Origin: Candidatus Avigastranaerophilus sp. | GTDB taxonomy: Bacteria; Cyanobacteriota; Vampirovibrionia; Gastranaerophilales; Gastranaerophilaceae | DNA: 47,829 nucleotides | Assembly (NCBI GenBank): GCA_045538205.1 | Contig: JAZSQW010000003.1 | Coordinates: forward strand, 1 to 47,829 | Direction of reading: 5' to 3' | In this document: positions 4,685 through 47,393 of the stretch, in pieces | How positions within the stretch are numbered: position 1 is the first letter of the stretch | Layout of the letters: each line of letters starts with the position of its first letter | The notes under the pieces: model-generated | Databases searched by the model: none | What the model was told of the DNA's origin: nothing | What the model saw: only the letters and a program-made list of their open reading frames with translations | Made by a program: the position numbers and the translations under genes

Positions 4685-6175
4685 TCAATATGCCCTTGCA
4701 AAGAGTACACGGCGTGCACTGGGTTTGCCTGTGACCATACATTTGCCGGGTGTGAGACTCTCTTCGTCCGCTTCGAAGGGGATGCATCGGATGGTAGCTT
4801 TAGTGTCTTCCTTGATGCGCTCTTCTGTTTCGGTAGTACCATCCCAGTGGGCAAGGATGAATCCGCCCTTTTCGATTTGCTCTTTGAACTCGTCGTAAGT
4901 ATCTACCTTGGTAGTATTCTCCTGACGGTATTTCAACGCCTTTTGGAAGATGTTCTCCTGAATTTCGTCCAACAGGTTCTTTACATATTCTTCAATGCCG
5001 TCGCAAGTAACGGTTTGCTTTTCTAATGTATCGCGACGCATCACTTCCATGGTGTTGTTTTCCAAGTCGCGTCCACCCATCACGAGACGAACGGGCACTC
5101 CCTTCAGTTCGTATTCGGCAAATTTGAATCCGGGGCGTTTGTTGTCTGCATTGTCGTACTTCACACTGATACCCATTGCTTTCAGATTGGCTACAATACC
5201 ACCAATCTTTTCGTTCAGGGCATTGAGTTGCTCTTCATTCTTATAAATAGGTACGATGACCACCTGTATGGGCGCAAGCTTCGGAGGAAGTACGAGGCCA
5301 TTGTCGTCAGAGTGAGTCATGATGAGTGCACCCATCAAGCGGGTTGATACTCCCCATGATGTCGCCCACACGTATTGGAGTTGGTTTTCCTTATCTACGA
5401 ATTGTACGTCGAATGCCTTGGCGAAGTTCTGTCCGAGGAAGTGTGATGTACCGCTCTGCAATGCCTTTCCATCTTGCATCAGAGCTTCGATGGTGTAAGT
5501 GTCAAGCGCACCGGCAAAACGTTCGTTTGCACTCTTCACACCCTTTACTACGGGTACGGCCATGTACTTTTCGGCAAAGTCGCCATAGACGTGAAGCATC
5601 TTCTGTGCCTCCTCTTCAGCCTCTTCACGGGTTGCGTGAGCGGTGTGTCCTTCTTGCCAAAGGAATTCTGCTGTACGCAAGAACAGGCGTGTACGCATTT
5701 CCCAACGCATTACGTTAGCCCACTGGTTACACATGATAGGCAGGTCGCGATAGGATTGAATCCAGTTCTTATAAGTACTCCAGATGATGGTTTCTGATGT
5801 GGGACGGATAATCAATTCCTCTTCCAGACGGGCGGCAGGGTCAACCACAACACCACTTCCGTCAGGTGCATTCTTCAACCGGTAATGTGTCACTACGGCA
5901 CACTCTTTAGCAAAGCCTTCTACATGATCGGCTTCGCGGCTCAGGTATGATTTCGGAATCAACAGAGGGAAATAGGCATTTACGTGTCCTGTCTCTTTGA
6001 ACATGTCGTCCAACTGACGTTGCATCTTTTCCCAAATAGCGTATCCGTAGGGCTTGATCACCATACATCCGCGCACGGCACTCTGCTCGGCCAAGTCGGC
6101 TTTCACCACCAGGTCGTTGTACCATTGGCTGTAATTCTCACTCCGTTTGGTGAGTTCTTTCAATTCTTTTGCCAT
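4685..6175 (-). CDS. proS: proline--tRNA ligase (archaeal/eukaryote-like class II type)
   Basis: 496-aa [55 protein letters not shown]..., a typical Bacteroidetes ProRS. Confidence 0.93.
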
Positions 6176-7587: not shown

Positions 7588-9333
7588 ATGGCAGAAAATA
7601 TTGCAACAGAAATTACTGAGAAAAAGAGCCTGAACTTCATTGAACAGGCAATAGAGAAAGATTTGAAAGAGGGTAAAAACGGTGGACGTGTACAGACACG
7701 CTTTCCGCCCGAACCCAATGGTTATTTGCACATCGGACACGCCAAAGCCATCTGTATGGATTTTGGCGCTGCTGCACGTTACGGTGGTGTGTGCAACCTT
7801 CGCTTCGACGATACTAACCCGACAAAGGAAGATACTGAATACGTAGAGGCAATCAAAGAGGATATCCAGTGGTTGGGCTTCCAGTGGGGAAATGAGTATT
7901 ACGCCAGCGACTATTTCCAACAGTTGTGGGACTTTGCCGTGCAGCTCATCAAGGAGGGAAAAGCTTATATCGACGAGCAGACGGCTGAAGAAATTGCTCA
8001 GCAGAAGGGAACCCCTACCCTGCCCGGTACTGAAAGTCCTTATCGCAATCGTCCTGTAGAGGAGAGCCTCGCTCTGTTTGAGAAAATGAATACTGGCGAG
8101 ATTGAGGAAGGCCGCATGGTGCTTCGTGCCAAGATTGATATGGCAAGCCCTAATATGCATTTCCGCGACCCTATCATCTATCGTGTGGTGAACCATCCCC
8201 ATCATCGTACAGGCACCGCTTGGAAGGCTTATCCTATGTACGACTTCGCCCATGGTCAGAGTGACTATTTTGAGGGAGTGACCCACTCACTCTGTACGCT
8301 GGAGTTTGTGCCTCACCGTCCCCTTTATGACCTTTTTGTCGATTGGGTGAAGAATGGCGAGGATCTCGATGACAACCGTCCCCGTCAGTATGAATTCAAC
8401 AAATTGAATCTCAACTATACCCTTATGAGCAAGCGCAATCTGCTCATTCTTGTGAAGGAGGGATTGGTCAACGGATGGGACGACCCCCGTATGCCGACTC
8501 TTTGTGGATTCCGTCGTCGTGGTTATTCGCCTGAAAGTATCCGCAATTTTGTGGATAAAATCGGCTATACCACCTACGATGCTTTGAACGACTTTGCCCT
8601 GCTCGAAAGTGCCGTGCGCGAAGACCTCAACCAACGTGCTACCCGTGTCAGTGCCGTGCTTGATCCTGTGAAGCTGGTCATCACCAACTATCCCGAGGAC
8701 AAGGTGGAGATGCTTACCGCCATCAACAATCCTGAAAATGAAGCTGATGGTACTCACGAAATAGCCTTTGGTCGCGAACTTTGGATTGAGCGCGACGACT
8801 TCATGGAGGTAGCCGAGAAGAAGTTCATGCGTTTGGCTCCCGGCAAGGAGGTGCGCTTGAAGAATGCTTATATCATCAAGTGTGATGAGAATCACCCATG
8901 TGACAAGGATGCTGATGGTCGCGTGACTACTGTGTATTGTACCTACGACCCCGAAACACGTAGCGGAATGCCCGGAGCTGACCGTAAGATTAAGGGTAAG
9001 ACCCTCCATTGGGTAAGTTGCGCCCATAGCTTGAAGGCCGAGGTCCGCCTCTATGACCGTTTGTGGAAGGCCGAGAATCCCCGCGATGAATTGGCCTCTA
9101 TCCGCGAAGCCAAGAATTGCGATGCTTTGGAAGCTATGAAGGAGATGATAAACCCCGATTCTCTGAAGGTGCTCACCGAGTGTTATGTCGAAGAATTTCT
9201 GGCTACGGCCAAGCCGCTCGATTATTTGCAATTCCAGCGCATCGGATACTTCAATGTCGATAAGGAATCAACCCCCTCACACCTTGTCTTCAACCGTACT
9301 GTCGGCCTGAAGGACACGTGGAGCAAGAAGTAA
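7588..9333 (+). CDS. glnS: glutamine--tRNA ligase
   Basis: 581-aa ORF with class I HIGH motif (PEPNGYLHIGHAKA) and MSK motif (LMSKR). Overall GlnRS pattern. Confidence 0.93.
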   Translation: MAENIATEITEKKSLNFIEQAIEKDLKEGKNGGRVQTRFPPEPNGYLHIGHAKAICMDFGAAARYGGVCNLRFDDTNPTKEDTEYVEAIKEDIQWLGFQWGNEYYASDYFQQLWDFAVQLIKEGKAYIDEQTAEEIAQQKGTPTLPGTESPYRNRPVEESLALFEKMNTGEIEEGRMVLRAKIDMASPNMHFRDPIIYRVVNHPHHRTGTAWKAYPMYDFAHGQSDYFEGVTHSLCTLEFVPHRPLYDLFVDWVKNGEDLDDNRPRQYEFNKLNLNYTLMSKRNLLILVKEGLVNGWDDPRMPTLCGFRRRGYSPESIRNFVDKIGYTTYDALNDFALLESAVREDLNQRATRVSAVLDPVKLVITNYPEDKVEMLTAINNPENEADGTHEIAFGRELWIERDDFMEVAEKKFMRLAPGKEVRLKNAYIIKCDENHPCDKDADGRVTTVYCTYDPETRSGMPGADRKIKGKTLHWVSCAHSLKAEVRLYDRLWKAENPRDELASIREAKNCDALEAMKEMINPDSLKVLTECYVEEFLATAKPLDYLQFQRIGYFNVDKESTPSHLVFNRTVGLKDTWSKK

Positions 9334-13804: not shown

Positions 13805-13812
13805 TACCTTTG
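13805..13812 (+). promoter_or_regulatory. -7 box TAccTTTG for integrase
   Basis: 22 nt upstream of the ATG at 13834. Confidence 0.5.
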
Positions 13813-13833
13813 CAGCATAAAAATATTACAGTT

Positions 13834-15345
13834 ATGATAAAAGCATTAATTATTATTAGAACTTCTACAAAGAAGCAAGAGGTTGATTCTCAAAATTATG
13901 AGATTGTAAACTACGTTAAATCAATGGGTTATACAGATGATGAAATTGTAGTAGTAGGTACTAAAGCAGCTTCTGCCATCAAATTAGATGACCGTTATAA
14001 AGAGAATATGAACAAGGTATATGCAACAATTAATAGTAATCCCTCTATTGAATGTGTATATGCTTGGGGTTTGGATAGAATCGGTAGAAATGAAGAACTT
14101 ATGGTAGGATTTAAGAATTTCTTGATTCAAAAAAAGATAAATTTGAGAATTAAAGAGCCATCTTTATATTTGTTAGAAGATGATGGCACTGTAAATAAAG
14201 GTATGGAATTAGCACTTAGTTTATTTATAACTATGGCTAAACAAGAAATGGAACAAAAGAAAGCCAGATTCAAAAGAGCCAAGGATAGGAATCGTAGAGA
14301 AGGAAGATTTAACGGAGGTGCTGAAACCAGATTCGGATATAGTGTAGAAAATGGATATTTCGTAGTTAATAAAGAGGAAGCAGATATAGTAAGACTGTTA
14401 TTTGATGAATATGCTACTGGAGCATATAGCATTCAAAAACTAAGCAATGAAATGAATAGTAGAGGTATTAGACACAGGGGAAAAAGGCTTACTTTAGATT
14501 TTCTGCATAGTTTGTTATCTGATAACACTTATATCGGTGAAGGAAACAAAGCCGCTATTATAGAAAAAGAAGTCTTTGATAAAGTTGCAGCTATTAGAGT
14601 TAAAAACACTTCCCCACTTTTAACTAAAGAGAGTAAGACTATACATTTAGCTACAAAAATTTTAGTCTGTGAAAACTGTGGCTGTAATTACGGAGCAAAC
14701 TTTGATAGATATGTATGTTACAAACACAGATTTCCCAGTAGATTTCAAGATGAATGTACCAACGATTTAACTATTAGAATTGACTTAATGGATAAATTGA
14801 TTTGGGAGGTAGCTTTTGAAATGCACAAACAGTATTTATCAGTCGTAGATCAGACAAAGATAAATGAAATTGATAGAGAATTAGCTGTATTAGGACAAAA
14901 AGTATTGGAAATTTACAATAAAATGGAGGCTCTTAAACCTAGAAGAGAAAGAATTATTGAATTATATACTGACGGTATTACAACTAAAGAGCAGTTCACC
15001 AGAGCAGAAAATAAGATTAAAACAGATTTAGAAAATTATAATGAAATTCTAAACAGCTATATAGAAAAGACTGAATATTATAAGGAATTGGCAGAAAAGG
15101 TTAAAAATCCAGACACAGATATTGTTGTAAATAGCCAAGAAGAAAAGAAAAAGATTGTATCAAAGCATATAAAAAAGGTCGTAGTCAGAAGGCACGAATA
15201 TTTAGGAAAAGTTATGACTTTGATAATCTTTAATGACAATATTAAAATTTTATACAATCCTTGGTCAAAACGAAAAACGGATAATAACATCTACTACTGG
15301 GAAAACGAACAGTGGGTAGGAAAATATAGAGTTTCTGCCAAATAA
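13834..15345 (+). CDS. int: large serine recombinase (integrase)
   Basis: N-terminal resolvase motif ALIIIRTSTKKQ, recombinase domain, Cys-rich zinc ribbon (CENCGCNYGANFDRYVCYKH), coiled-coil C-terminus. No TAG; TAA stop. Confidence 0.88.
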   Translation: MIKALIIIRTSTKKQEVDSQNYEIVNYVKSMGYTDDEIVVVGTKAASAIKLDDRYKENMNKVYATINSNPSIECVYAWGLDRIGRNEELMVGFKNFLIQKKINLRIKEPSLYLLEDDGTVNKGMELALSLFITMAKQEMEQKKARFKRAKDRNRREGRFNGGAETRFGYSVENGYFVVNKEEADIVRLLFDEYATGAYSIQKLSNEMNSRGIRHRGKRLTLDFLHSLLSDNTYIGEGNKAAIIEKEVFDKVAAIRVKNTSPLLTKESKTIHLATKILVCENCGCNYGANFDRYVCYKHRFPSRFQDECTNDLTIRIDLMDKLIWEVAFEMHKQYLSVVDQTKINEIDRELAVLGQKVLEIYNKMEALKPRRERIIELYTDGITTKEQFTRAENKIKTDLENYNEILNSYIEKTEYYKELAEKVKNPDTDIVVNSQEEKKKIVSKHIKKVVVRRHEYLGKVMTLIIFNDNIKILYNPWSKRKTDNNIYYWENEQWVGKYRVSAK

Positions 15346-15381
15346 AACAATAAAGCCAGCAAAGTGATGCTGGCTTTACTT

Positions 15382-16302
15382 TTATATGAAACTTAAAAAG
15401 TCGGCTTCAGACATTATTTCTATGTCTTGTCCTTTGTCTTTCAGTTTTATGGCTTTTTCTTGTTTGGAACTTAGACCGTCTTCACCTACTACCCTGTAAT
15501 CCTGCTGGCCTACTACAAGTATATCAGTATTCTTAGTTACAGAATCTACAGGGATGCCACCTATATCAGCTATCTTTTGCCACAAACCTTGTCTGGTGGA
15601 ATAGCTAAGTTTGCCAGTAAAACATACGGTTTTCTGGTAGAAGTAGTTTCCTTCATCTATCAGTTCTGGATTCCCTTGTATGTTGGCACTTTTTATTTTA
15701 GGGCTTCCAGTAGATAGCTGTGGTTTAAAGTATGATGGCTTAAATTCACCACGTTTAAAATAGTATTTGGCTTCCAGTTCCTCTAAAGATGTAACTTCTG
15801 CCAGTTCCAAAGATTTGATAAAGACTTTGGCACAGGCTACAGAATCACTTTCCGCTCTATGGTGTGATTCAAAAGGAATATTCATAGCTTCACACAATGG
15901 GGACAAAGAATAGCTGTAGGTATCTTTAAAAGTGTATTTGGCAATTCTACAGGAACAGAAATGCTTGAATGTAGGAAATTCTATATCATAGAGTTCAAAA
16001 GCATCTTTCAAAGCGTACATATCAAATGAGGTGTTATGAGCCACTACAATTTGATTTGTCAAGTATGGTTCTACTTCTTTCCAGACCTTTTCAAATGAAG
16101 GACTGTTTTTTGTCATTTGGGGTGTAATGCCGTGAAGATAGATATTAAATCCATCGTAATCATTCCCTTCTGGACGAACTAACCAGCTTTTGCTTTCAAC
16201 TATCTGGGAATCCTTTACTATGGCTATACCTATTTCACAGATAGAGTTTCTTTGCCAGTTGGCAGTTTCTAAATCTAATGCTACAAAATTCAGATTTTCC
16301 AT
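15382..16302 (-). CDS. DEDDh 3'-5' exonuclease (DnaQ-like) fused to a C-terminal BRCT domain
   Basis: FVALDLETAN ... VAHNTSFDMYAL ... HHRAESDS exo motifs. BRCT-like segment TVCFTGKLS...DILVVGQ. Start set at MENLNF because a -7 box lies inside the longer track ORF. No TAG. Confidence 0.8.
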   Translation of the reverse strand: MENLNFVALDLETANWQRNSICEIGIAIVKDSQIVESKSWLVRPEGNDYDGFNIYLHGITPQMTKNSPSFEKVWKEVEPYLTNQIVVAHNTSFDMYALKDAFELYDIEFPTFKHFCSCRIAKYTFKDTYSYSLSPLCEAMNIPFESHHRAESDSVACAKVFIKSLELAEVTSLEELEAKYYFKRGEFKPSYFKPQLSTGSPKIKSANIQGNPELIDEGNYFYQKTVCFTGKLSYSTRQGLWQKIADIGGIPVDSVTKNTDILVVGQQDYRVVGEDGLSSKQEKAIKLKDKGQDIEIMSEADFLSFI

Positions 16303-16324
16303 ACGCTTTTGTTTTAATTTGATG

Positions 16325-16332
16325 CAAATATA
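16325..16332 (-). promoter_or_regulatory. -7 box TAtaTTTG (minus strand) for the exonuclease gene
   Basis: Reverse complement of CAAATATA, 23 nt upstream of the ATG at 16302. Confidence 0.45.
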
Positions 16333-16375
16333 CAATAAAATAGCAGCTTAATAATAGTTTCTACTTATAAATGTG

Positions 16376-16383
16376 TACATTTG
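16376..16383 (+). promoter_or_regulatory. -7 box TAcaTTTG
   Basis: 23 nt upstream of the ATG at 16406. Confidence 0.45.
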
Positions 16384-16405
16384 CAGAAACAAATAAATTG
16401 CAGGT

Positions 16406-16897
16406 ATGAAAAAAGTACTATTACTGATAGCTTTAATTAGTTTGCCACTACTGGCATTTGCACAGTCTGTATCATATACATACAAGCCATTAGCAGCAGA
16501 AGGATGCAGTGTTAGATATACTGTAGCAAAACAGGATTCTTCCAGTTACATAGTAGTTACGATAAAGTCAGACCGCTTTAAGTTCCTTACAGAATCCACT
16601 ATGTTAATAAGAACCTACAAAGATGAAGTAATAAAGTTAGAAGGTAAACATATAAATGATGGCAGTGAAACTGGTGGTATCGTATCTGGTAATATAGTTA
16701 TTCCTGTTACTGAAATAAGCACCACAGCACAATTTAAAATAACTGATGAACAAATAGAGAAATTACAGGATGGTGTAGCTAAGATAAGGATTACAGCTAT
16801 TCCAATGAATCACGAAAGAAACTTTAAGAAGGATAAGATAGGTAAGAAGCTATACAAGTACTTCAATGAGTTAGCAAATACTGATGATACCTTTTAA
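16406..16897 (+). CDS. secreted hypothetical protein (accessory/moron candidate)
   Basis: Signal peptide MKKVLLLIALISLPLLAFAQ. No TAG; TAA stop. Confidence 0.7.
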   Translation: MKKVLLLIALISLPLLAFAQSVSYTYKPLAAEGCSVRYTVAKQDSSSYIVVTIKSDRFKFLTESTMLIRTYKDEVIKLEGKHINDGSETGGIVSGNIVIPVTEISTTAQFKITDEQIEKLQDGVAKIRITAIPMNHERNFKKDKIGKKLYKYFNELANTDDTF

Positions 16898-16971
16898 AAC
16901 AAAAAAGCCAGCTTACTTAGCTGTAAAATGAAGGAATAAGGGAATAATCTTGAATTTCAAATTTTGAATGT

Positions 16972-17568
16972 ATGGTTACTATACTTTTTATTGTTGTTAT
17001 CTTAGTTATATATATACTGGTAATTGCTTGTAAAGAATCTGGGAAACGTAGAAAAGCCCAAAAGGAATTATCCGATAAATACATTAAGTTTATATCACAA
17101 TTTAACAAGGTGAATGGGACACGTTATTTATTATATGGTGATTTAAATGCAATATTTAATAAGTGCCTTGTGGATTACATTTTTACAGCTAATTATGTTT
17201 TACCTTTTGTTTTAGATAAAAAACACGATATATCTTTACATAATTACAGATATAAAGATATGAAGAACTATAAGGAATCAAGTATATACAAATTAGAAGA
17301 ATGTAGATTAGGGGAATTATTAAACATACAAAAAAACCAAGATGTGAAATTATTTTATAGTACCCTATTTGATATTTCTATAAACACCTTTTCTATAGAT
17401 CATAAAATATGTGCTGCACATTATGTTAAAGAAAATAACCCTGTAAGAATAAGAATATTTACTGAATACAGGGATTCTGGAGAACTTTGGTTAGATACAT
17501 TTACAATTACTGGACAACATATAGAATCTACAGTGAAACATTTAGGGTCAGCTTCTGATTATGAATAA
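16972..17568 (+). CDS. N-terminally membrane-anchored hypothetical protein
   Basis: TM segment VTILFIVVILVIYILVIAC followed by a 170-aa soluble domain. No TAG. Confidence 0.65.
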   Translation: MVTILFIVVILVIYILVIACKESGKRRKAQKELSDKYIKFISQFNKVNGTRYLLYGDLNAIFNKCLVDYIFTANYVLPFVLDKKHDISLHNYRYKDMKNYKESSIYKLEECRLGELLNIQKNQDVKLFYSTLFDISINTFSIDHKICAAHYVKENNPVRIRIFTEYRDSGELWLDTFTITGQHIESTVKHLGSASDYE

Positions 17569-17597
17569 TTATAGTGCTAACTTTATTGCTTATACTT

Positions 17598-18434
17598 ATG
17601 CCTAAAACATTTCAACATTTGAGTAAGTCTGCTATAAATACAATGCTGCCAGATAATTTGCAGTTAAAAGACAAAAAATATAGTGGTAATATTTACTCTA
17701 CAAAAGGAGGAGATTTAATAGGATATACAGAATCTAAATACTATGAAAAAGAAGATGAATTTTTCTATTCATTATTTATAGATTTATTTGAAGAATATGA
17801 AGTTAAAAATGCCTGTTTAGCAGTCTATAATAAGGGGGTGTTTCTGTTACCATTGGAGTTATTGTTAGAATTGAGAGAAGTTACTCATTCAAAGCTATAT
17901 AAAGATATAGGGCTAAGATATAATCTTCATATTGTTGAAAAAGATAATAGCTTCACATTGTGCAAAGCAAAAAATGGATATACAAAAGACCTAACCGAAT
18001 ACTTTATACCGTATGAAGCCCACTGTATAGAAGAATTATATGATATTGATTATGACCAGATTCTACAAGATGCTATAAAATATCAAGATTCAGAACAACA
18101 GTACACTATTACAAATGATGCAAAACGAAGAATTGAAAGTAAAAAGCAAAAGGAACGTATAGCCATTTTAGAAAATCATACCTGCCAAATATGTGGCTTT
18201 AATCAATCTTATATCAATGAAAGCGGAAATAAAAAATGGATTATTGAAGTTGATCATATTATTGAAAAGTCTAAAGGTGGAGGAGAAACAATAAATAATT
18301 TGATGGTATTGTGTCCTAATTGCCACGCAAAAAAAACTTATGGAATAATTAAAATAGATAAGAATTACCGTGTATTTGAAAATAATGTAGAAATACAAAT
18401 TAGGGACAATCATTTGAAATTATCCCTTAAATGA
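17598..18434 (+). CDS. McrA-like HNH endonuclease with unknown N-terminal domain
   Basis: C-terminal segment HTCQICGF...EVDHIIEKSKGGGETINNLMVLCPNCHAKK (CxxC...H...N...CxxCH). ATG at 17598 preferred over the GTG at 17574. No TAG; TGA stop. Confidence 0.75.
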   Translation: MPKTFQHLSKSAINTMLPDNLQLKDKKYSGNIYSTKGGDLIGYTESKYYEKEDEFFYSLFIDLFEEYEVKNACLAVYNKGVFLLPLELLLELREVTHSKLYKDIGLRYNLHIVEKDNSFTLCKAKNGYTKDLTEYFIPYEAHCIEELYDIDYDQILQDAIKYQDSEQQYTITNDAKRRIESKKQKERIAILENHTCQICGFNQSYINESGNKKWIIEVDHIIEKSKGGGETINNLMVLCPNCHAKKTYGIIKIDKNYRVFENNVEIQIRDNHLKLSLK

Positions 18435-18456
18435 ACCATATAATATAAACAAATAA

Positions 18457-18490
18457 TGCCAGCCTACAGTTAAGTAAGCTGGCATTTTTT
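18457..18490. terminator. bidirectional rho-independent terminator
   Basis: TGCCAGC-loop-GCTGGCA with TTTTTT on the + side and a T-rich run on the - side. Confidence 0.75.
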
Positions 18491-18581
18491 ATAGTATGGG
18501 GGCTAAGATGCACATTATACAGAAAGCCATTACAGCACCCCAAATGAACCCTTCTAATATCATTCTATTGTATGTTTTCAT
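18489..18581 (-). CDS. 30-aa hydrophobic peptide MKTYNRMILEGFIWGAVMAFCIMCILAPIL
   Basis: ATG to TAA, single TM-like segment, lies between the tRNA candidate and the terminator. Too short for the track. Confidence 0.35.
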   Translation of the reverse strand: MKTYNRMILEGFIWGAVMAFCIMCILAPIL

Positions 18582-18596
18582 AGTGTTAGGTTTAAG

Positions 18597-18667
18597 TAGT
18601 CCTATTCCGATTCAAACGGAAACTTAGAAGGTTAGAATTTCTTATGCTATCATTACATCATAGGACA
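18597..18667 (-). tRNA. candidate amber-suppressor tRNA, anticodon CUA (tRNA-Sup; Gln identity inferred)
   Basis: Hand fold of TGTCCTA TG ATGT AATGATA GCAT A AGAAA TTCTAAC CTTCT AAGT TTCCG TTTGAAT CGGAA TAGGACT A. Acceptor stem 6/7 bp (U1.U72). D stem 3 WC + 1 GU. Anticodon stem 4 WC + A.C. Loop is U-U-CUA-A-C. T stem 5/5. Has U8, A14, A21, A15:U48, T54, A58. The 19:56 pair reads A:U rather than G:C, which is compensatory. No encoded CCA. Confidence 0.5.
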
Positions 18668-18772
18668 ATATTTAACGAATACTTATCTGATTAAGTCTAT
18701 CAAGCCAGTTAAGGTAGTACTGGCTGTTTTTATCTGGGTATTGTTGCTGGTATGAATCCACCAGCCTTAATA

Positions 18773-19240
18773 TCATTTCTCCGATTTCTTCCATATACCA
18801 TTTATCTTTATGAACTTAGTACCCTTTTCTTTGGGTATCAGTAGTATATTCTTCATCTTCTTTCCTGTATTAATGGCTGTAGTCCTATTACAGTAGAAGC
18901 TATCAGTAGTAGCGTATTTACTAATGGTGAAAGTGCTGTACCAGTAACAGGAATCTTCACCAAAGAAGCAAATGTAAAAGGCTGCATCTAAACCCTTATC
19001 TTTCTTATCCTGTACCAAAGCATTAAACTTATCCACTTCCATAAGGTGTGTATCATAATCTTCATACTGCTGGCTTCTTACTTTGATTTCGGCTACTATG
19101 CCTTTATCTTTGAGTTTGAAATAAAAATCTACAGGGTTAAATTCATCTTCTGTGGGCTATAAGTCTGTAGCTTTCATCTATCCCAACAGTTCACTTAAAA
19201 GGCTTCTACCCTTCTATTCGGATTCAGTAAATTTATTCAT
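18773..19240 (-). CDS. PD-(D/E)XK / Hjc-like nuclease candidate (recoded, 3 in-frame TAG)
   Basis: Extends track ORF 18773..19042 upstream through TAGs at comp. 19214-16, 19178-80 and 19157-59 to an ATG overlapping the upstream TGA (ATGA). Reads MNKFTESEQKGRSLLSELLGQMKATDLQPTEDEFNPVDFYFKLKDKGIVAEIKVRS... (D...E-x-K). Confidence 0.65.
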
Positions 19241-19818
19241 AATATAATATCGGTTATATGTGGTTGTTCTTCTTTTATATCTTCTTTGGGTTCTTTGGCT
19301 AAGTAGTGACACTTGTAATATAGCCTACCCTTTGTAATATGTCCCTTATCTTCTAATTGCTTTAAGTATTTGCTGGTAGTTTGTCGGGTAATACCCATTC
19401 TATTAGCTATGCCTTCTATGGTGGTTTCTGCTATATCATTTATTCCTATTTCCGCTATCAGTTGTAGGTAAATCAGTACACCCTTTTCTTTTGGCTTCAG
19501 TTCCTGTACAAGTAAATCTGGATTCAACATCAAAAAATCTTTGGACTTTGGTAATGTGTATTCATTAAATACATAATCATTCACTTCTGATTTAAGCTGT
19601 ATGTAGTCCAGAAAGCCGTTTGTTTTTAATCTCTTTACAGCATCTTCCACTTTGCTTAGTGCTATGTTGTATTTGTCTGCTATAGTCCTTAATCCTATTC
19701 TGGATTTGTGTGTAGTGCTATCCTTTTGAAAGTCTATAGCTGCATATACCAGTACATCTATGAATTTAGTTCCTGTTTTCAATGCCAGAAATTTTCTTGG
19801 TATTTGAATAAACCTCAT
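19237..19818 (-). CDS. tandem winged-helix DNA-binding protein (replication initiator or regulator)
   Basis: Two wHTH-like segments (LRTIADKYNIALSKVEDAVKRLKTNGFL; IANRMGITRQTTSKYLKQLEDKGHI). No TAG; TGA stop. Confidence 0.65.
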   Translation of the reverse strand: MRFIQIPRKFLALKTGTKFIDVLVYAAIDFQKDSTTHKSRIGLRTIADKYNIALSKVEDAVKRLKTNGFLDYIQLKSEVNDYVFNEYTLPKSKDFLMLNPDLLVQELKPKEKGVLIYLQLIAEIGINDIAETTIEGIANRMGITRQTTSKYLKQLEDKGHITKGRLYYKCHYLAKEPKEDIKEEQPHITDIIL

Positions 19819-19957
19819 AGTTTGCCGATGTAGGATTATTAGTTAAAATAAAATCTTCTGTGAACTTGAACAATCTGTTAAATAAGCCAGTACCAAAGTG
19901 TATTTTGGCTTCTTTTCGGTTCTGGAACACCTGCCCAGTTGGTTTGTAAATAATCAT
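19766..19957 (-). CDS. small hypothetical protein, first gene of the leftward operon
   Basis: 63-aa ORF overlapping the next gene by 52 nt. No TAG. Confidence 0.45.
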   Translation of the reverse strand: MIIYKPTGQVFQNRKEAKIHFGTGLFNRLFKFTEDFILTNNPTSANYEVYSNTKKISGIENRN

Positions 19958-20044
19958 TCGTTTTTCTTCAAATTTGGTTAGTTTGCTAATCTAAAAATGA
20001 AAATTCATCTAAAAAGAGTGCCTAAAGTCGTAATGTTAAATTTT

Positions 20045-20098
20045 GGGTACTATTCCATACAAAGGTATTTTTGATGTATGGATATGTACCCATTTTTT
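20045..20098 (+). terminator. long hairpin plus T-run (GGGTAC..TCCATACA..TGTATGGA..GTACCC ATTTTTT)
   Basis: Read directly. No annotated + gene upstream, so possibly a small-RNA end. Confidence 0.4.
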
Positions 20099-20114
20099 AA
20101 CATTGACCTTTTAT

Positions 20115-20143
20115 GATAAGATTTCGTTTGAATCTTATCTTTT
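20115..20143 (+). terminator. 9-bp hairpin GATAAGATT-TCGTTTG-AATCTTATC followed by TTTT
   Basis: Read directly. Confidence 0.4.
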
Positions 20144-20353
20144 CGGCTAAGTGAGCCTTTGAAAATTAAAATTATGAGTAGCTTTTTGTAACTGTAATCT
20201 TCTGATTATCATCTATACAAGTATATTCACAATTCTGGGCGATTCCAAATAAATATAGCGGAATCTTTGTTTGGCTGGCTGGTATGCCGCTAATCTCTGC
20301 CAGGCACTGACCGACCTGCCGAGCCAACCGAAATTTGGCGAAAAGAAGCCGAT

Positions 20354-20764
20354 TTAGTCCGCTGGGGTACTTTCCACCGTAATAGCCGCTTTTCTACCCT
20401 GCTGTAGATTACTTTTTAGTATAGAAGTTAGTAATGTTTCATATTTGGTGGAATTGAGAACTTTACCCTTCACTTTGTTTTCACCTACCAGAATACAGCC
20501 ACTGGTATCATTTGGAGTATTACCACGGTGTATTAGTATTCCTTCAAAGTTTGGCACATTAAGTAATCTGGGTAAATCCCTTTTGAATTTGGGCGATCTG
20601 TTTACTATGACTTCATAAGTGCCTTCTGGAATGGCTGTTTTGTGCATTATCTTCTTTTCTCTTACGGTATCTTCCAACGTATCACAGAAGTACTACCCAT
20701 CTATATAAAGTCTGCCTATTGTGTAATCTGTTTTTTGTGCTATTCGTTTTAAAAGTAGATTCAT
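20354..20764 (-). CDS. DUF5675-like / YkuD-fold putative cell-wall hydrolase (recoded, 1 TAG)
   Basis: Track ORF 20354..20677 extended upstream through one TAG: [23 protein letters not shown][TAG][12 protein letters not shown]... Motif [19 protein letters not shown] resembles the H...SxGC L,D-transpeptidase-fold site. Confidence 0.65.
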
Positions 20765-20790
20765 TTGTTTGTCAATACATTAATTATGAG

Positions 20791-20798
20791 TAATTTTG
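20791..20798 (+). promoter_or_regulatory. -7 box TAatTTTG
   Basis: 22 nt upstream of the ATG at 20820. Confidence 0.45.
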
Positions 20799-20819
20799 CA
20801 GCATATAAATAAAAGCAGG

Positions 20820-21341
20820 ATGAAAACTTATCTATTTGACACATTCAACAGATATAAAAGATTCAGTGAAAAACTGGATGCTAAGACTATTCTTTGTAAT
20901 AAATCTTGGTGGGTGTTTAATGATTCTGGAGAAAAAGAAGTGTATATTTTTAATACAGATGGTTCTTTAATTATATCCGTATCTGGTAAGGTGACAAATG
21001 CCACTTGGAAGTATATTCCTGCAAATAAATCTATCATTATTGCCGCTGGTGAAGAATCTTATATGGTTATTCCTGCTTTTGTGGATAGCAATATATTAGC
21101 TCTACAGATAGATGGTACTGATGAATTTGCTTTTCTGATTGATGAACAGAATATACAGAAATTCCTGCCTAAAACTTTATTAGAAGTACACCAATATTTT
21201 GAAGACAAGGAAGCAAAAGAAATTGAAGCTAAAATTATTAAAGAAAGAGAATTGAAAGAAACAGAACAAACAGATAAAAGGCTTGTTATCTGTCTTTTTA
21301 TTCTTGCAGGTGTGTGTGTTCTTATTGAATTATTATTTTAA
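20820..21341 (+). CDS. C-terminally membrane-anchored hypothetical protein (TAG-free island inside the recoded block)
   Basis: MKTYLFDTFNRYKRF... with C-terminal TM segment LVICLFILAGVCVLIELLF. TAA stop. Confidence 0.65.
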   Translation: MKTYLFDTFNRYKRFSEKLDAKTILCNKSWWVFNDSGEKEVYIFNTDGSLIISVSGKVTNATWKYIPANKSIIIAAGEESYMVIPAFVDSNILALQIDGTDEFAFLIDEQNIQKFLPKTLLEVHQYFEDKEAKEIEAKIIKERELKETEQTDKRLVICLFILAGVCVLIELLF

Positions 21342-21624
21342 AATGTAATTTCTAATGACATTCTTTGCAAAGGCTTTGCAAATTATGAAAGTCGTATGCC
21401 TTTTGTAATCTCATATTTCCTGTATAATTCATAAAACTATCTATGTGGTGAACATCTACAGCAGGTTTCACTATACCAGCCTGTAGGCACTATTCACAAA
21501 GTGGATTTGCCATTAGCTTTGCCTACCTTAGTTTCTTCCATTTTGCAGACTGATACACCTTCTGTCTATCCTGCCTGTTAAATGTTCTGGATTTCTGCTT
21601 TGATGGCTTCTATAAAGTTGGCAT
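21322..21624 (-). CDS. phage HNH endonuclease (recoded, 4 in-frame TAG; alternative start at 21648)
   Basis: Invisible in the track. Own translation: ...RQDRQKVYQSAKWKKLR[Q]AKLMANPLCE[Q]CLQAGIVKPAVDVHHIDSFMNY...NLQSLCKECH[Q]KLHFK. Ends in TAA and overlaps the 3' end of the convergent gene 20820..21341. Confidence 0.75.
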
Positions 21625-21967
21625 TTGTTGTAGGTGTTGGTTCTTCATATTCGGTATCTGGAAAATCTTTATCTTCTATTGGTATCACCATATAGTTTGT
21701 AACCTTACTATCTCTATAATATGCACCCTTTAATAAGTTGAAGTAGTATTTGTACTACTATATAAAGTCCTTATCTGGGTTGTAATTGTATGTCAGTTTA
21801 AGATAAGTATCATTAAATATATCTTCATCCGTTTCTGACTTCACCAGCATAGAATGTAACTGCTGGTAGTGTTTGGTAAGTAGTCTGCTTACTTCTGGGT
21901 TATATAGGGCTTTTTCTACATTAACCTACATTCTTTTCCACTAATCCCAGTTATTAACCTGCTGCAT
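21578..21967 (-). CDS. hypothetical protein, 129 aa (recoded, 4 TAG including a tandem TAG-TAG); weak sigma region-2-like pattern
   Basis: MQQVNNWD[Q]WKRM[Q]VNVEKALYNPEVSRLLTKHYQQLHSMLVKSETDEDIFNDTYLKLTYNYNPDKDFI[QQ]YKYYFNLLKG...IQNI, TAA stop. Confidence 0.6.
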
Positions 21968-22282: not shown

Positions 22283-22660
22283 ATGGCAAAATTTAAGATA
22301 CCTACAGACATTGAAAAGGATGCAGTGGAATATATGAAGAATGTGCTGCAACAGTTAGAAGATAACGGTGTTTTGGAAAATGTAGATAGTGCTGCATTAA
22401 CAATGCTGGCCAGAAACTACAGTATGTTTATCAAAGCATCCAAATAGCTTGAAAAAGATGGATTAACAGTAACCAGTGACAGGGGAAACATAGCACCCCA
22501 CCCAGCTATAAAGATTGCCAAAGATGCACAAATACAGGCTATGAAAGTAATGGCAGAATTTGGGCTTACTGCCAAAGCCAGAACCAAATTAAAGATAGAT
22601 AAGGCAGATGAAGATTCACCGTTTGAAGCGTTTGTAAAGGCTGGTAAAGAAGTTAGATAA
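22283..22660 (+). CDS. terS: terminase small subunit, P27 family (recoded, TAG at 22445-22447)
   Basis: MAKFKIPTDIEKDAVEYMKNVLQQLEDNGVLENVDSAALTMLARNYSMFIKASK[Q]LEKDGLTV...HPAIKIAKDAQIQAMKVMAEFGLTAKARTKL. TAA stop overlaps the next ATG (TAATG). Confidence 0.8.
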
Positions 22661-23277
22661 TGGGCAAATTAAAGAAGAATCCTATTCTGGATGATGCAGG
22701 TAAGATTATAGGGTATGAAGCACCAACAAAGGATATACAGATAATGGTATGTGACAAGAAAGAAGCGGATGCCATAATTATAGCAAACCACTATTCACAC
22801 AAAGCCACAAAGAACAGCTTTCTTTCTTTTCTGGTGTATTACAAAGATAAGGTAGCTGGGGCTTTACAAGTCGGTTATGGAATCCGACCAAAGAAAAAGG
22901 GTACACTGAATCCAGACGAAGTTAGGGAATTTGATAGAATGTGGCTATCTGATGAAATGCCGAAATATTCGGAAACTATCACTTTATCCCTGCTACACCA
23001 TTATCTAAGGAAAGTACACCCAGAAGTAAAGTATCTGATTAGCTATGCAGATAACAGTAGTGATGTAGGCAATGAAGGGACTATTTATAAGGCTGCAAAC
23101 TACAAACTGATAGACAAAGTAAAATCCGATTTCTACATACTTGAATCTGGTGAACGAGTACACCCAGTAACGATGTGGCACAGACACGGAACAAGAAAAT
23201 GGGCTTTCCTACAGTAGCAGTACCCCAACATTAAAAAGGCTGATGGATTCCAGATGAAATACCTGTTTGAATTATGA
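22660..23277 (+). CDS. Mom-like GNAT-fold DNA-modification protein (adenine methylcarbamoylation family), recoded (TAG at 23215-23217)
   Basis: ANHYSHKATKNS...REFDRMWLSDEMPKYSET...LISYADNSSDVGNEGTIYKAANY matches the family pattern as I remember it. TGA stop in an ATGA overlap with terL. Confidence 0.6.
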
Positions 23278-47250: not shown

Positions 47251-47393
47251 TAAGGGTATGGGGTGAAATTTTAGAGGTTTAAGGCTTGAAACCCCAGCCC
47301 AGCCTTCTTTCCACAAAAAGTAATTCCCATTATTCAAAATCTATCATTTTTGCAATTCTAAATTAAAACTGCTACATTATGTTTCTAGAATTA

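Follow-up and report, generated by a model that had tools for sequence, protein, structure and literature searches.

How can a prophage whose genes are interrupted by TAG codons be translated in a host that uses the standard genetic code? The question is raised by a stretch of 47,829 nucleotides from Candidatus Avigastranaerophilus sp. (contig JAZSQW010000003.1, positions 1 to 47,829; hereafter, the window). It contains a TAG-recoded prophage of about 33.6 kb and, inside it, a 71-nt sequence on the minus strand (18597 to 18667) that an earlier note, made from the letters alone, had folded by hand into a tRNA with the anticodon CUA. Our analysis indicates that this sequence is very probably a functional phage-encoded amber-suppressor tRNA that inserts glutamine at UAG. 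The evidence comes from sequence comparison: tRNA models recover the gene, its stems covary across a family of phage homologs, the family is found where genomes are recoded, and the residues aligned with TAG at conserved protein columns are nearly always glutamine.

The prophage and its in-frame TAG codons

Two shifts in G+C content delimit the element: at 14 kb, its left boundary, the value falls from about 0.5 to about 0.32, and at about 47.4 kb it rises again. The tRNA gene lies well inside the prophage and is close to neither end. Reading TAG as a sense codon raised the coverage of the element by stop-to-stop open reading frames (ORFs) from 0.74 to 0.92 (0.80 when TGA was read as sense) and lengthened its longest ORF from 404 to 1964 amino acids (aa), leaving the host flank unchanged. 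The element is TAG-recoded, with 68 in-frame TAGs across its curated genes. The main clients of a suppressor would be the packaging, head, and tail genes (22283 to 44074, plus strand), encoding TerS, a Mom-like protein, TerL, portal, protease, major head, tape measure, and tail proteins. TerL and the portal have two TAGs each, the protease and the major head protein one each, the tape measure nine, and the tail proteins 6, 6, and 15. The Mom-like DNA-modification gene (22660 to 23277, plus strand; phrog_1384, E = 7e-32) lies between the genes for TerS and TerL and has one in-frame TAG.

With TAGs in TerL, portal, protease, and major head, the element needs a UAG decoder, as the earlier note had argued. 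That note had also seen neither a release factor nor an aminoacyl-tRNA synthetase gene in the element. We found none among the element proteins scanned, and the GGQ, HIGH, and KMSK motifs were absent from ORFs of at least 80 aa in any frame of the element, a search used as a proxy for the incompletely scanned large tail proteins. A second tRNA was found in the window neither by ARAGORN, with default settings or with the option -ps, nor by the family model described below. It is plausible that the one tRNA is the element's entire recoding toolkit, although hidden factors, or a host suppressor encoded beyond the window, may also take part.

A tRNA(CUA) gene detected by relaxed searches

The minus strand from 18667 to 18597 reads UGUCCUAUGAUGUAAUGAUAGCAUAAGAAAUUCUAACCUUCUAAGUUUCCGUUUGAAUCGGAAUAGGACUA (71 nt). 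With ARAGORN at 95% of its default threshold (-ps), the 47.8-kb window yielded a single tRNA, c[18596,18667], with the anticodon cta, drawn with the same fold that had been proposed by hand. Its acceptor stem has six of seven pairs, with U1.U72 mismatched, and the discriminator is A73. The D stem comprises three Watson-Crick pairs and a U.G, the T stem is complete (5/5), and the variable loop has 4 nt. The anticodon stem, made of four Watson-Crick pairs and an A31.C39 mismatch, closes the 7-nt loop UUCUAAC (U32-U33-C34-U35-A36-A37-C38). ARAGORN and RF00005 agree that the anticodon, at tRNA positions 34 to 36 (ARAGORN sequence positions 33 to 35), is the complement of the plus-strand TAG at 18633 to 18635. 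The core nucleotides U8, A14, G18, A21, U33, U54-U55, and A58 and the pairs 15:48 and 19:56 are all present, the latter as A:U and not G:C. No CCA is encoded at the 3' end, where the trailer reads A73-C-U-U. The minimum free energy structure given by RNAfold is also the cloverleaf (-13.5 kcal/mol).

Detection depended on the threshold and on the length of the sequence submitted. ARAGORN, one of the checks suggested in the earlier note, recovered the gene at the 95% threshold but not by default. Another, RF00005, matched from model position 1 to 71 (18597 to 18667, minus strand; 42.7 bits, E = 1.5e-8; gathering threshold, 29 bits) when 96 nt were submitted, but returned no match at the gathering threshold on the whole window or at E of 10 or less on a 351-nt slice. 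We first took these negatives as contrary evidence and dropped this view after the 96-nt Rfam search and the relaxed ARAGORN runs with shuffles, since they result from the ARAGORN threshold and the Rfam speed filters and not from low model scores. Indeed, Rfam cmscan needed submissions of less than 1 kb to report the window copy and its homolog in phage cr125_1; the cr125_1 tRNA, likewise lost to the speed filters, scored 49.4 bits when submitted alone, and the same filters dropped four of eight relatives (L002, L007, L013, and L042) in a 58-kb scan.

Could the sequence be a chance cloverleaf in A+T-rich DNA, or a tRNA-like remnant of recombination or attachment from which no RNA is expressed? 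The negative results of default detectors, the unremarkable folding energy, and the existence of partial family fragments (metagenomic contig L036, below) would fit such an origin. It is effectively refuted by the full-length RF00005 match and by a covarying family that spans three phage groups. The background of the relaxed ARAGORN search also opposes it, at 0.02 matches per 33.8 kb (first-order Markov shuffling of the element, repeated 300 times, gave six matches, none of them CUA). A remnant of attachment is further opposed by the distance of the gene from the prophage ends and by the serine type of the recombinase. Attachment-site repeats between the prophage ends were limited to 8-mers, which is uninformative for a serine recombinase.

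Other RNA-like matches were rejected. The weak Rfam matches to snoZ155, SNORD47, and FopS in the gap that holds the tRNA are noise, all of them far below threshold. The match to FopS, a small RNA family of Bacteroidetes, covers the first 26 nt (18572 to 18597, plus strand; 16.5 bits against a threshold of 56), adjoins the tRNA, and is antisense to the start of a 30-aa ORF described below. At 90% of its default threshold, ARAGORN also drew a tRNA-Ser (GGA) at 47272 to 47344 (minus strand), just inside the right end of the element, which is probably noise because its acceptor stem is poor and several mismatches occur.

A family of phage tRNAs under selection for structure

When the region was compared by blastn with 50,697 phage records, the candidate was the one part of it that drew a match, to the annotated tRNA-Gln of the crAss-like phage cr125_1 (78% over 74 nt), which ARAGORN calls tRNA(CUA) at default settings. 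When a 76-nt query was used alone, the Prevotella megaphages Lak-A1, Lak-A2, and Lak-C1 also matched (about 74% over 74 nt), again at sequences called tRNA(CUA) by ARAGORN. The IMG/VR contigs that encode relatives of the Rep-like protein of the element (58 to 66% identity) each carry a tRNA(CUA) that passes default ARAGORN. Scanning viral, genome, and metagenome collections with the invariant 20-mer of the T arm returned 34 distinct contigs, in 25 of which the 20-mer lay within a tRNA, the other nine being chance matches outside any tRNA. All 25 tRNAs have the anticodon CUA, and CUG or UUG occurred in none. The matches in the genome collection come from Bacteroidales (a Phocaeicola sp. metagenome-assembled genome [MAG], Prevotella sp. 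RUG124, and a Bacteroidaceae MAG). Apart from suppressors, the family matched a single tRNA in the 50,697 phage records, at 76% over 59 nt (E = 4e-3): the tRNA-Gln(CUG) of Streptomyces phage Daubenski.

The earlier note had named conservation and covariation in related phages as a way to check the gene. Aligned against the cloverleaf, 13 distinct family sequences had 91.6% of their cells paired, and 13 of the 22 pairs were altered on both sides, a count reached by none of 500 shuffles; slid controls gave 0 to 3. Compensation was seen at 2:71, 3:70, 4:69, 5:68, 6:67, 10:25, 12:23, 27:43 to 30:40, and the tertiary pair 19:56. The 19:56 pair is A:U in 12 sequences and G:C in cr125_1, which bears out the suggestion that A19:U56 is a compensated change. 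That the T stem does not vary among these sequences is imposed by the T-arm search pattern. The Lak sequences, found independently by blastn, bring the alignment to 15 sequences and add two compensated T-stem pairs, and the covariation result persists. U1.U72 is unpaired in all 15 family sequences and A31.C39 in 11 of them. All differences in the stems between the window copy and its relatives are compensated and no pair is newly broken, the A31.C39 and U1.U72 mismatches being family traits.

Conservation among close relatives points the same way. In two genomes the tRNA matches that of the window at every position despite flank divergences of 3.2% and 5.5%, at which 2.3 and 3.9 differences were expected. 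Prophages 95 to 97% identical to this one are found in IMG/VR 3300018430_002317 and in the Phocaeicola sp. MAG JAZRMW010000001.1. In the syntenic ortholog L023, 16 of 71 positions differ, mainly in stems, and the pairs 3:70 and 4:69 are changed on both sides. The family covariance model, R1, gives the window copy 94.8 bits and the Lak tRNAs 61 to 65 bits, although the latter are outside the model. On this comparative evidence, we regard the 71-nt sequence as a real tRNA gene under selection for structure.

Two observations concern other members of the family. The metagenomic contig L036 (JAEIGA010940316.1, around 1155 to 1214) retains only the 3' two-thirds of the tRNA, starting at the D loop, and the sequence on its 5' side is unrelated; the contig also has a separate match to the terminator region of the window. 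A recombination breakpoint or a chimeric assembly may explain it. In Lak-A1 and Lak-A2, the family member is followed, about 0.9 kb downstream, by another and different tRNA(CUA) (L123 and L125, 2410 to 2482).

TAG is aligned with glutamine

A search for TerL relatives identified 80 IMG/VR contigs, two of which are fragments of near-identical phages (99% identity in TerL), the other 78 sharing 78 to 86% identity. Most of these 78 use the standard code. ARAGORN and the family-specific covariance model found the tRNA family absent from 78 of the 80 contigs, and every locus that carries it is recoded, gaining 0.10 to 0.47 in coverage when TAG is read as sense. Judged by ORF coverage, the presence of the tRNA family tracks recoding across the relatives.

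We aligned the recoded proteins of the window, with TAG masked as X, to those of the relatives. The residues opposite TAG were glutamine in 80 sequences and leucine in 6 at TerL position 29 (n = 86), glutamine in 78 and TAG itself in 8 at TerL 136, and glutamine in 72 of 74 at portal 248, 61 of 61 at capsid 113, and 74 of 89 at TerS 55. Over all columns, glutamine accounted for 579 of the 1,560 residues aligned to TAG and approached 100% at conserved columns. The codons most often opposite TAG were CAG (394) and CAA (185). In the reverse comparison, the TAGs of recoded relatives faced glutamine most often in the window proteins (112). Glutamine at TAG has been shown by mass spectrometry in crAss-like phages (PMC9523058). 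These alignments indicate that TAG is glutamine in the element (genetic code 15).

A working amber suppressor that inserts another residue (e.g., lysine, leucine, or tyrosine, or pyrrolysine according to the label given by ARAGORN) has to be weighed against these data, and we consider it very unlikely. Lysine, leucine, histidine, valine, and others do occur opposite TAG at variable columns, but glutamine is almost exclusive at the conserved columns of TerL, portal, capsid, and TerS, and the codon most common opposite TAG, CAG, is one transition away from it. The label 'Pyl' is given by ARAGORN to any CUA tRNA; pyl genes were not observed, and the element is free of class I synthetase motifs. 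The reverse comparison, the mass spectrometry of crAss-like phages, and the identity of the nearest non-suppressor tRNA in the phage records, a tRNA-Gln(CUG), also oppose it. The features of the tRNA and of the host synthetase that would favor another residue are given in the next section.

At the TAG sites, the closest TerL relatives, which use the standard code, have CAG or CAA, so the lineage of the window looks like a branch of a standard-code clade that was recoded recently. The CAG or CAA codons are found in L045 to L122, where the window has TAG between 22283 and 44074. Six of the standard-code relatives (85% identical in TerL) encode a tRNA(CAU) on the strand opposite to TerL and about 3 kb upstream of it (minus strand in all: L056, 5198 to 5269; L057, 5959 to 6030; L077, 2953 to 3024; L081, 5445 to 5516; L082, 6783 to 6854; L084, 5716 to 5787). 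We considered this tRNA as a positional or sequence ancestor of the suppressor, but such a descent is not supported, its context being different and the similarity being only at the generic tRNA level.

Proposed charging by the host and evidence to the contrary

A host glutaminyl-tRNA synthetase (GlnRS) is encoded about 4.5 kb outside the prophage (7588 to 9333, plus strand; NCBIfam TIGR00440 glnS, 677 bits, cutoff 425.8). It scores 637 bits against Escherichia coli GlnRS structures, and its Pfam domains agree. The presence of this gene in the flank implies that the host has a direct route of glutaminylation; its adjacency to the prophage is probably coincidental. The same host flank encodes a proline--tRNA ligase (ProRS; 4685 to 6175, minus strand).

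The earlier note had seen Gln-like identity features in the tRNA. The identity set of E. coli GlnRS comprises a weak 1:72 pair, G2:C71, G3:C70, G10, U35, A37, U38, and G73. The window tRNA has the open 1:72 (U.U), G2:C71, C34, U35, and A37, but the remaining elements are missing, as detailed below. Moreover, the U1.U72 mismatch is shared by the whole family and, together with A73, by the tRNA(CAU) of the six standard-code relatives, so the mismatch may be a lineage trait and not a mark of glutamine; GlnRS identity read from U1.U72 is suggestive only. Aligned to its E. coli counterpart, the host GlnRS conserves R341, R402, and R410, which we take to be anticodon readers, but not L136 and D235, which we take to be readers of the acceptor end. 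Given this partial identity set, the insertion of glutamine is argued mainly from the protein alignments, and we infer charging by the host GlnRS.

Several observations weigh against a functional, glutamine-inserting suppressor. With respect to charging, G3:C70 (here U:A), G10 (A), U38 (C), and G73 (A) are absent from the tRNA, and Leu136 and Asp235 of the E. coli enzyme are aligned to other, non-conserved residues in the host GlnRS; both points would favor a residue other than glutamine. The second also means that the charging rules of E. coli are not transferable to this host. With respect to the tRNA itself, default ARAGORN misses it in the whole window, its folding energy is no better than that of shuffles (z = -1.43), and it is the most A+T-rich member of the family (35% G+C) and the lowest scoring in the prophage clade. 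The anticodon stem contains a single G-C pair besides the A31.C39 mismatch, and A10-U25 replaces G10-C25. C38 and an absent 31:39 pair form a context that is not considered optimal for amber suppressors. Finally, the gene lies downstream of genes that contain TAG, which leaves the order of events ambiguous.

Most of the features of the tRNA just listed could be those of a decaying relic that has lost its efficiency, with UAG decoded by a tRNA(CUA) of the host or of a co-resident phage encoded outside the window, or by a mechanism that does not involve a tRNA. In this regard, relatives L006 to L009 pass default ARAGORN while the window copy fails, the low score in the prophage clade was obtained with the family model, and the window ends just past the element, so that the remaining host genome lies outside our view. 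We nevertheless consider a relic improbable. Decay is at odds with the compensation of all stem differences and with mismatches that are family-wide instead of new, and no substitution separates the tRNAs of three genomes despite a divergence of 3 to 5% in their flanks. Its RF00005 score of 42.7 bits is comparable to the 45 to 49 bits of the relatives, 68 in-frame TAGs are kept in essential genes, and the window holds no other tRNA. A functional suppressor that inserts glutamine is thus the reading that we retain.

Genetic context and a proposed code switch

The tRNA lies in a leftward unit on the minus strand. Four nucleotides upstream of it is the end of a small ORF (18672 to 18794, minus strand), the translation of which finishes with ...LNQISIR before a TAA (18674 to 18672); this 3' end is kept in the syntenic relatives L023 and L035, and the upstream flank TCGTTAAATAT is common to the window, L001, L023, and L035. 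Fifteen nucleotides after the tRNA starts an ORF for a hydrophobic 30-aa peptide, MKTYNRMILEGFIWGAVMAFCIMCILAPIL (18489 to 18581, minus strand), which is kept in syntenic relatives (..FIWGAVVAFC..APIL is encoded in L001, L023, and L035). The unit is closed by an intrinsic-terminator-like hairpin of 13 bp, 6 of them GC, with a T-rich tail (18455 to 18486, minus strand). A scan for sigma-70 promoters, with a model not made for Bacteroidetes promoters, gave no more matches than in shuffles, and we assign none.

Two contexts of the tRNA can be distinguished. In type A, that of the window, it follows the ..QISIR ORF and precedes the membrane peptide, and in type B it directly precedes a 46-aa ORF and an HNH gene. 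Each syntenic context has its own kept micro-ORF: the 30-aa hydrophobic one (..FIWGAVMAFCIMCILAPIL) accompanies the tRNA in the window, L001, L023, and L035, and the 46-aa one (MEEYLKKKCNE...LNKLSVTY; L006, 2892 to 3032) in L006 to L015, L022, L024, and others. The matching junction in standard-code relatives is occupied by unrelated accessory genes. The differing positions of the tRNA and the unrelated genes at the junction are consistent with a mobile, horizontally acquired gene.

Upstream of the tRNA, a leftward block (18773 to 21967, minus strand) includes five TAG-bearing genes, with 13 in-frame TAGs in total (18773 to 19312, 19766 to 20008, 20354 to 20764, an HNH gene at 21322 to 21648, and 21578 to 21967), and a Rep/DnaD-like gene (19237 to 19818) that is TAG-free. 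The term early operon, used in the earlier note, is an assumption. To the left lies a module of five genes on mixed strands (13810 to 18434) that is readable in the standard code of the host. It encodes a large serine recombinase (13810 to 15345, plus strand), a DEDDh exonuclease-BRCT protein (15382 to 16335, minus strand), an HNH protein (17574 to 18434, plus strand), and two ORFs of unknown function, all of them TAG-free. The module has no TAG in about 1,480 codons, compared with about 0.8% TAG in recoded genes. Two ORFs at 44.3 to 46.4 kb are also TAG-free.

These data suggest a scenario in which the tRNA would be transcribed as the penultimate element of the leftward unit, before the 30-aa ORF and the terminator. 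RNase P and 3' processing would release it, and the host CCA-adding enzyme would add the CCA, a step required because none is encoded. Once charged with glutamine by the host GlnRS, it would compete with host release factor 1 (RF1) at UAG, and the 68 in-frame TAGs of the replication-proximal, packaging, head, and tail genes would then be read as glutamine. The recombinase, the exonuclease, the HNH protein, and the Rep-like protein may be those required during lysogeny or at a stage when the tRNA has not yet built up and, being TAG-free, could be translated in a naive host. We therefore propose that the tRNA acts as a code switch that licenses the translation of lytic genes. Borges et al. put forward such a licensing model for recoded prophages (bioRxiv 10.1101/2021.08.26.457843).

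Comparison with known systems

The classical amber suppressor supE of E. coli is a point mutant of tRNA-Gln2 with the anticodon CUA that is charged by GlnRS, inserts glutamine at UAG, and competes with RF1. It shares with the window tRNA U1, with a weak or open 1:72 pair, and A37. It has G10, G2:C71, G3:C70, U38, and G73, where the window tRNA has A10, U3:A70, C38, and A73 at the positions that differ, and the latter is only distantly related to cellular tRNA-Gln.

Phage tRNAs are closer. The tRNA of cr125_1 (NC_055900.1, 75225 to 75298; Suoliviridae, Aurodevirus hominis), also from a TAG-recoded Bacteroidales phage, shares with that of the window the anticodon CUA, U1.U72, A73, A37, an identical T stem, and the 4-nt variable loop AAGU. 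It differs in encoding CCA and in having G19:C56, U31-A39, and A38 in place of A19:U56, A31.C39, and C38. Its neighbors are a tRNA-Met and TerL, and the 98-kb genome is that of a virulent, podovirus-like phage, whereas the window tRNA belongs to a 33.6-kb temperate element with a serine recombinase. The Lak tRNAs (Lak-A1, MK250015.1, 226234 to 226310; Lak-A2; Lak-C1) have CUA, U1.U72, A73, and A10-U25 in common with it. Their anticodon loop is CUCUAAC, their D loop is 3 nt longer, and their T stem differs by two compensated pairs. They belong to genomes of about 540 kb with a second tRNA(CUA) nearby, unlike the window element with its one tRNA, and some Lak phages were reported to encode RF2 (bioRxiv 10.1101/2021.08.26.457843).

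The locus thereby adds evidence for one tRNA lineage common to three unrelated phage groups. A tentative extension, which we find possible though somewhat doubtful, is that this lineage (an always-open U1.U72, A73, CUA) passed horizontally among three groups of Bacteroidales phages (Lak phages, crAss-like Suoliviridae, and temperate phages of about 25 to 35 kb), that the tRNA is the sole factor with which the small phages would move from the standard code to code 15, and that the gain of a 72-nt gene at a mosaic junction turned a standard-code clade (TerL identity of 78 to 86%, without the tRNA) into a recoded one. If true, control of lysis and lysogeny by code switching could be tested in this prophage, a minimal natural system.

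Suppressor tRNAs were detected in only 40% of TAG-recoded genomes (bioRxiv 10.1101/2021.08.26.457843), and divergent ones were suggested to escape detection (bioRxiv 10.1101/2021.08.26.457843; PMC7886860). The window offers a concrete example of what is very probably a bona fide suppressor that neither default ARAGORN nor a filtered Infernal scan of the contig detects.

By its described features, the 'Garnet' prophage of Prevotella (bioRxiv 10.1101/2021.08.26.457843) resembles the window element. Both are small temperate elements of standard-code Bacteroidales hosts, with a G+C content below that of the host, a TAG-free integrase, structural genes fragmented under code 11, and a proposed switch between lysis and lysogeny. 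They differ in size (about 24 kb for Garnet and 33.6 kb for the window element), the latter having a large serine recombinase. The system in the window is compact: a 33.6-kb prophage with one tRNA, in which no release factor or synthetase was found, a host GlnRS nearby, and closest relatives that use the standard code, so that recoding as a license for lytic genes is genetically testable in such a system. Suppressor tRNAs in crAss-like and Lak phages that read TAG as glutamine, as well as recoded prophages with TAG-free integrases, are already documented (PMC7886860; bioRxiv 10.1101/2021.08.26.457843). The locus is thus a phage code-switch device of an already known kind, with no new mechanism, and its biology is expected and not surprising.

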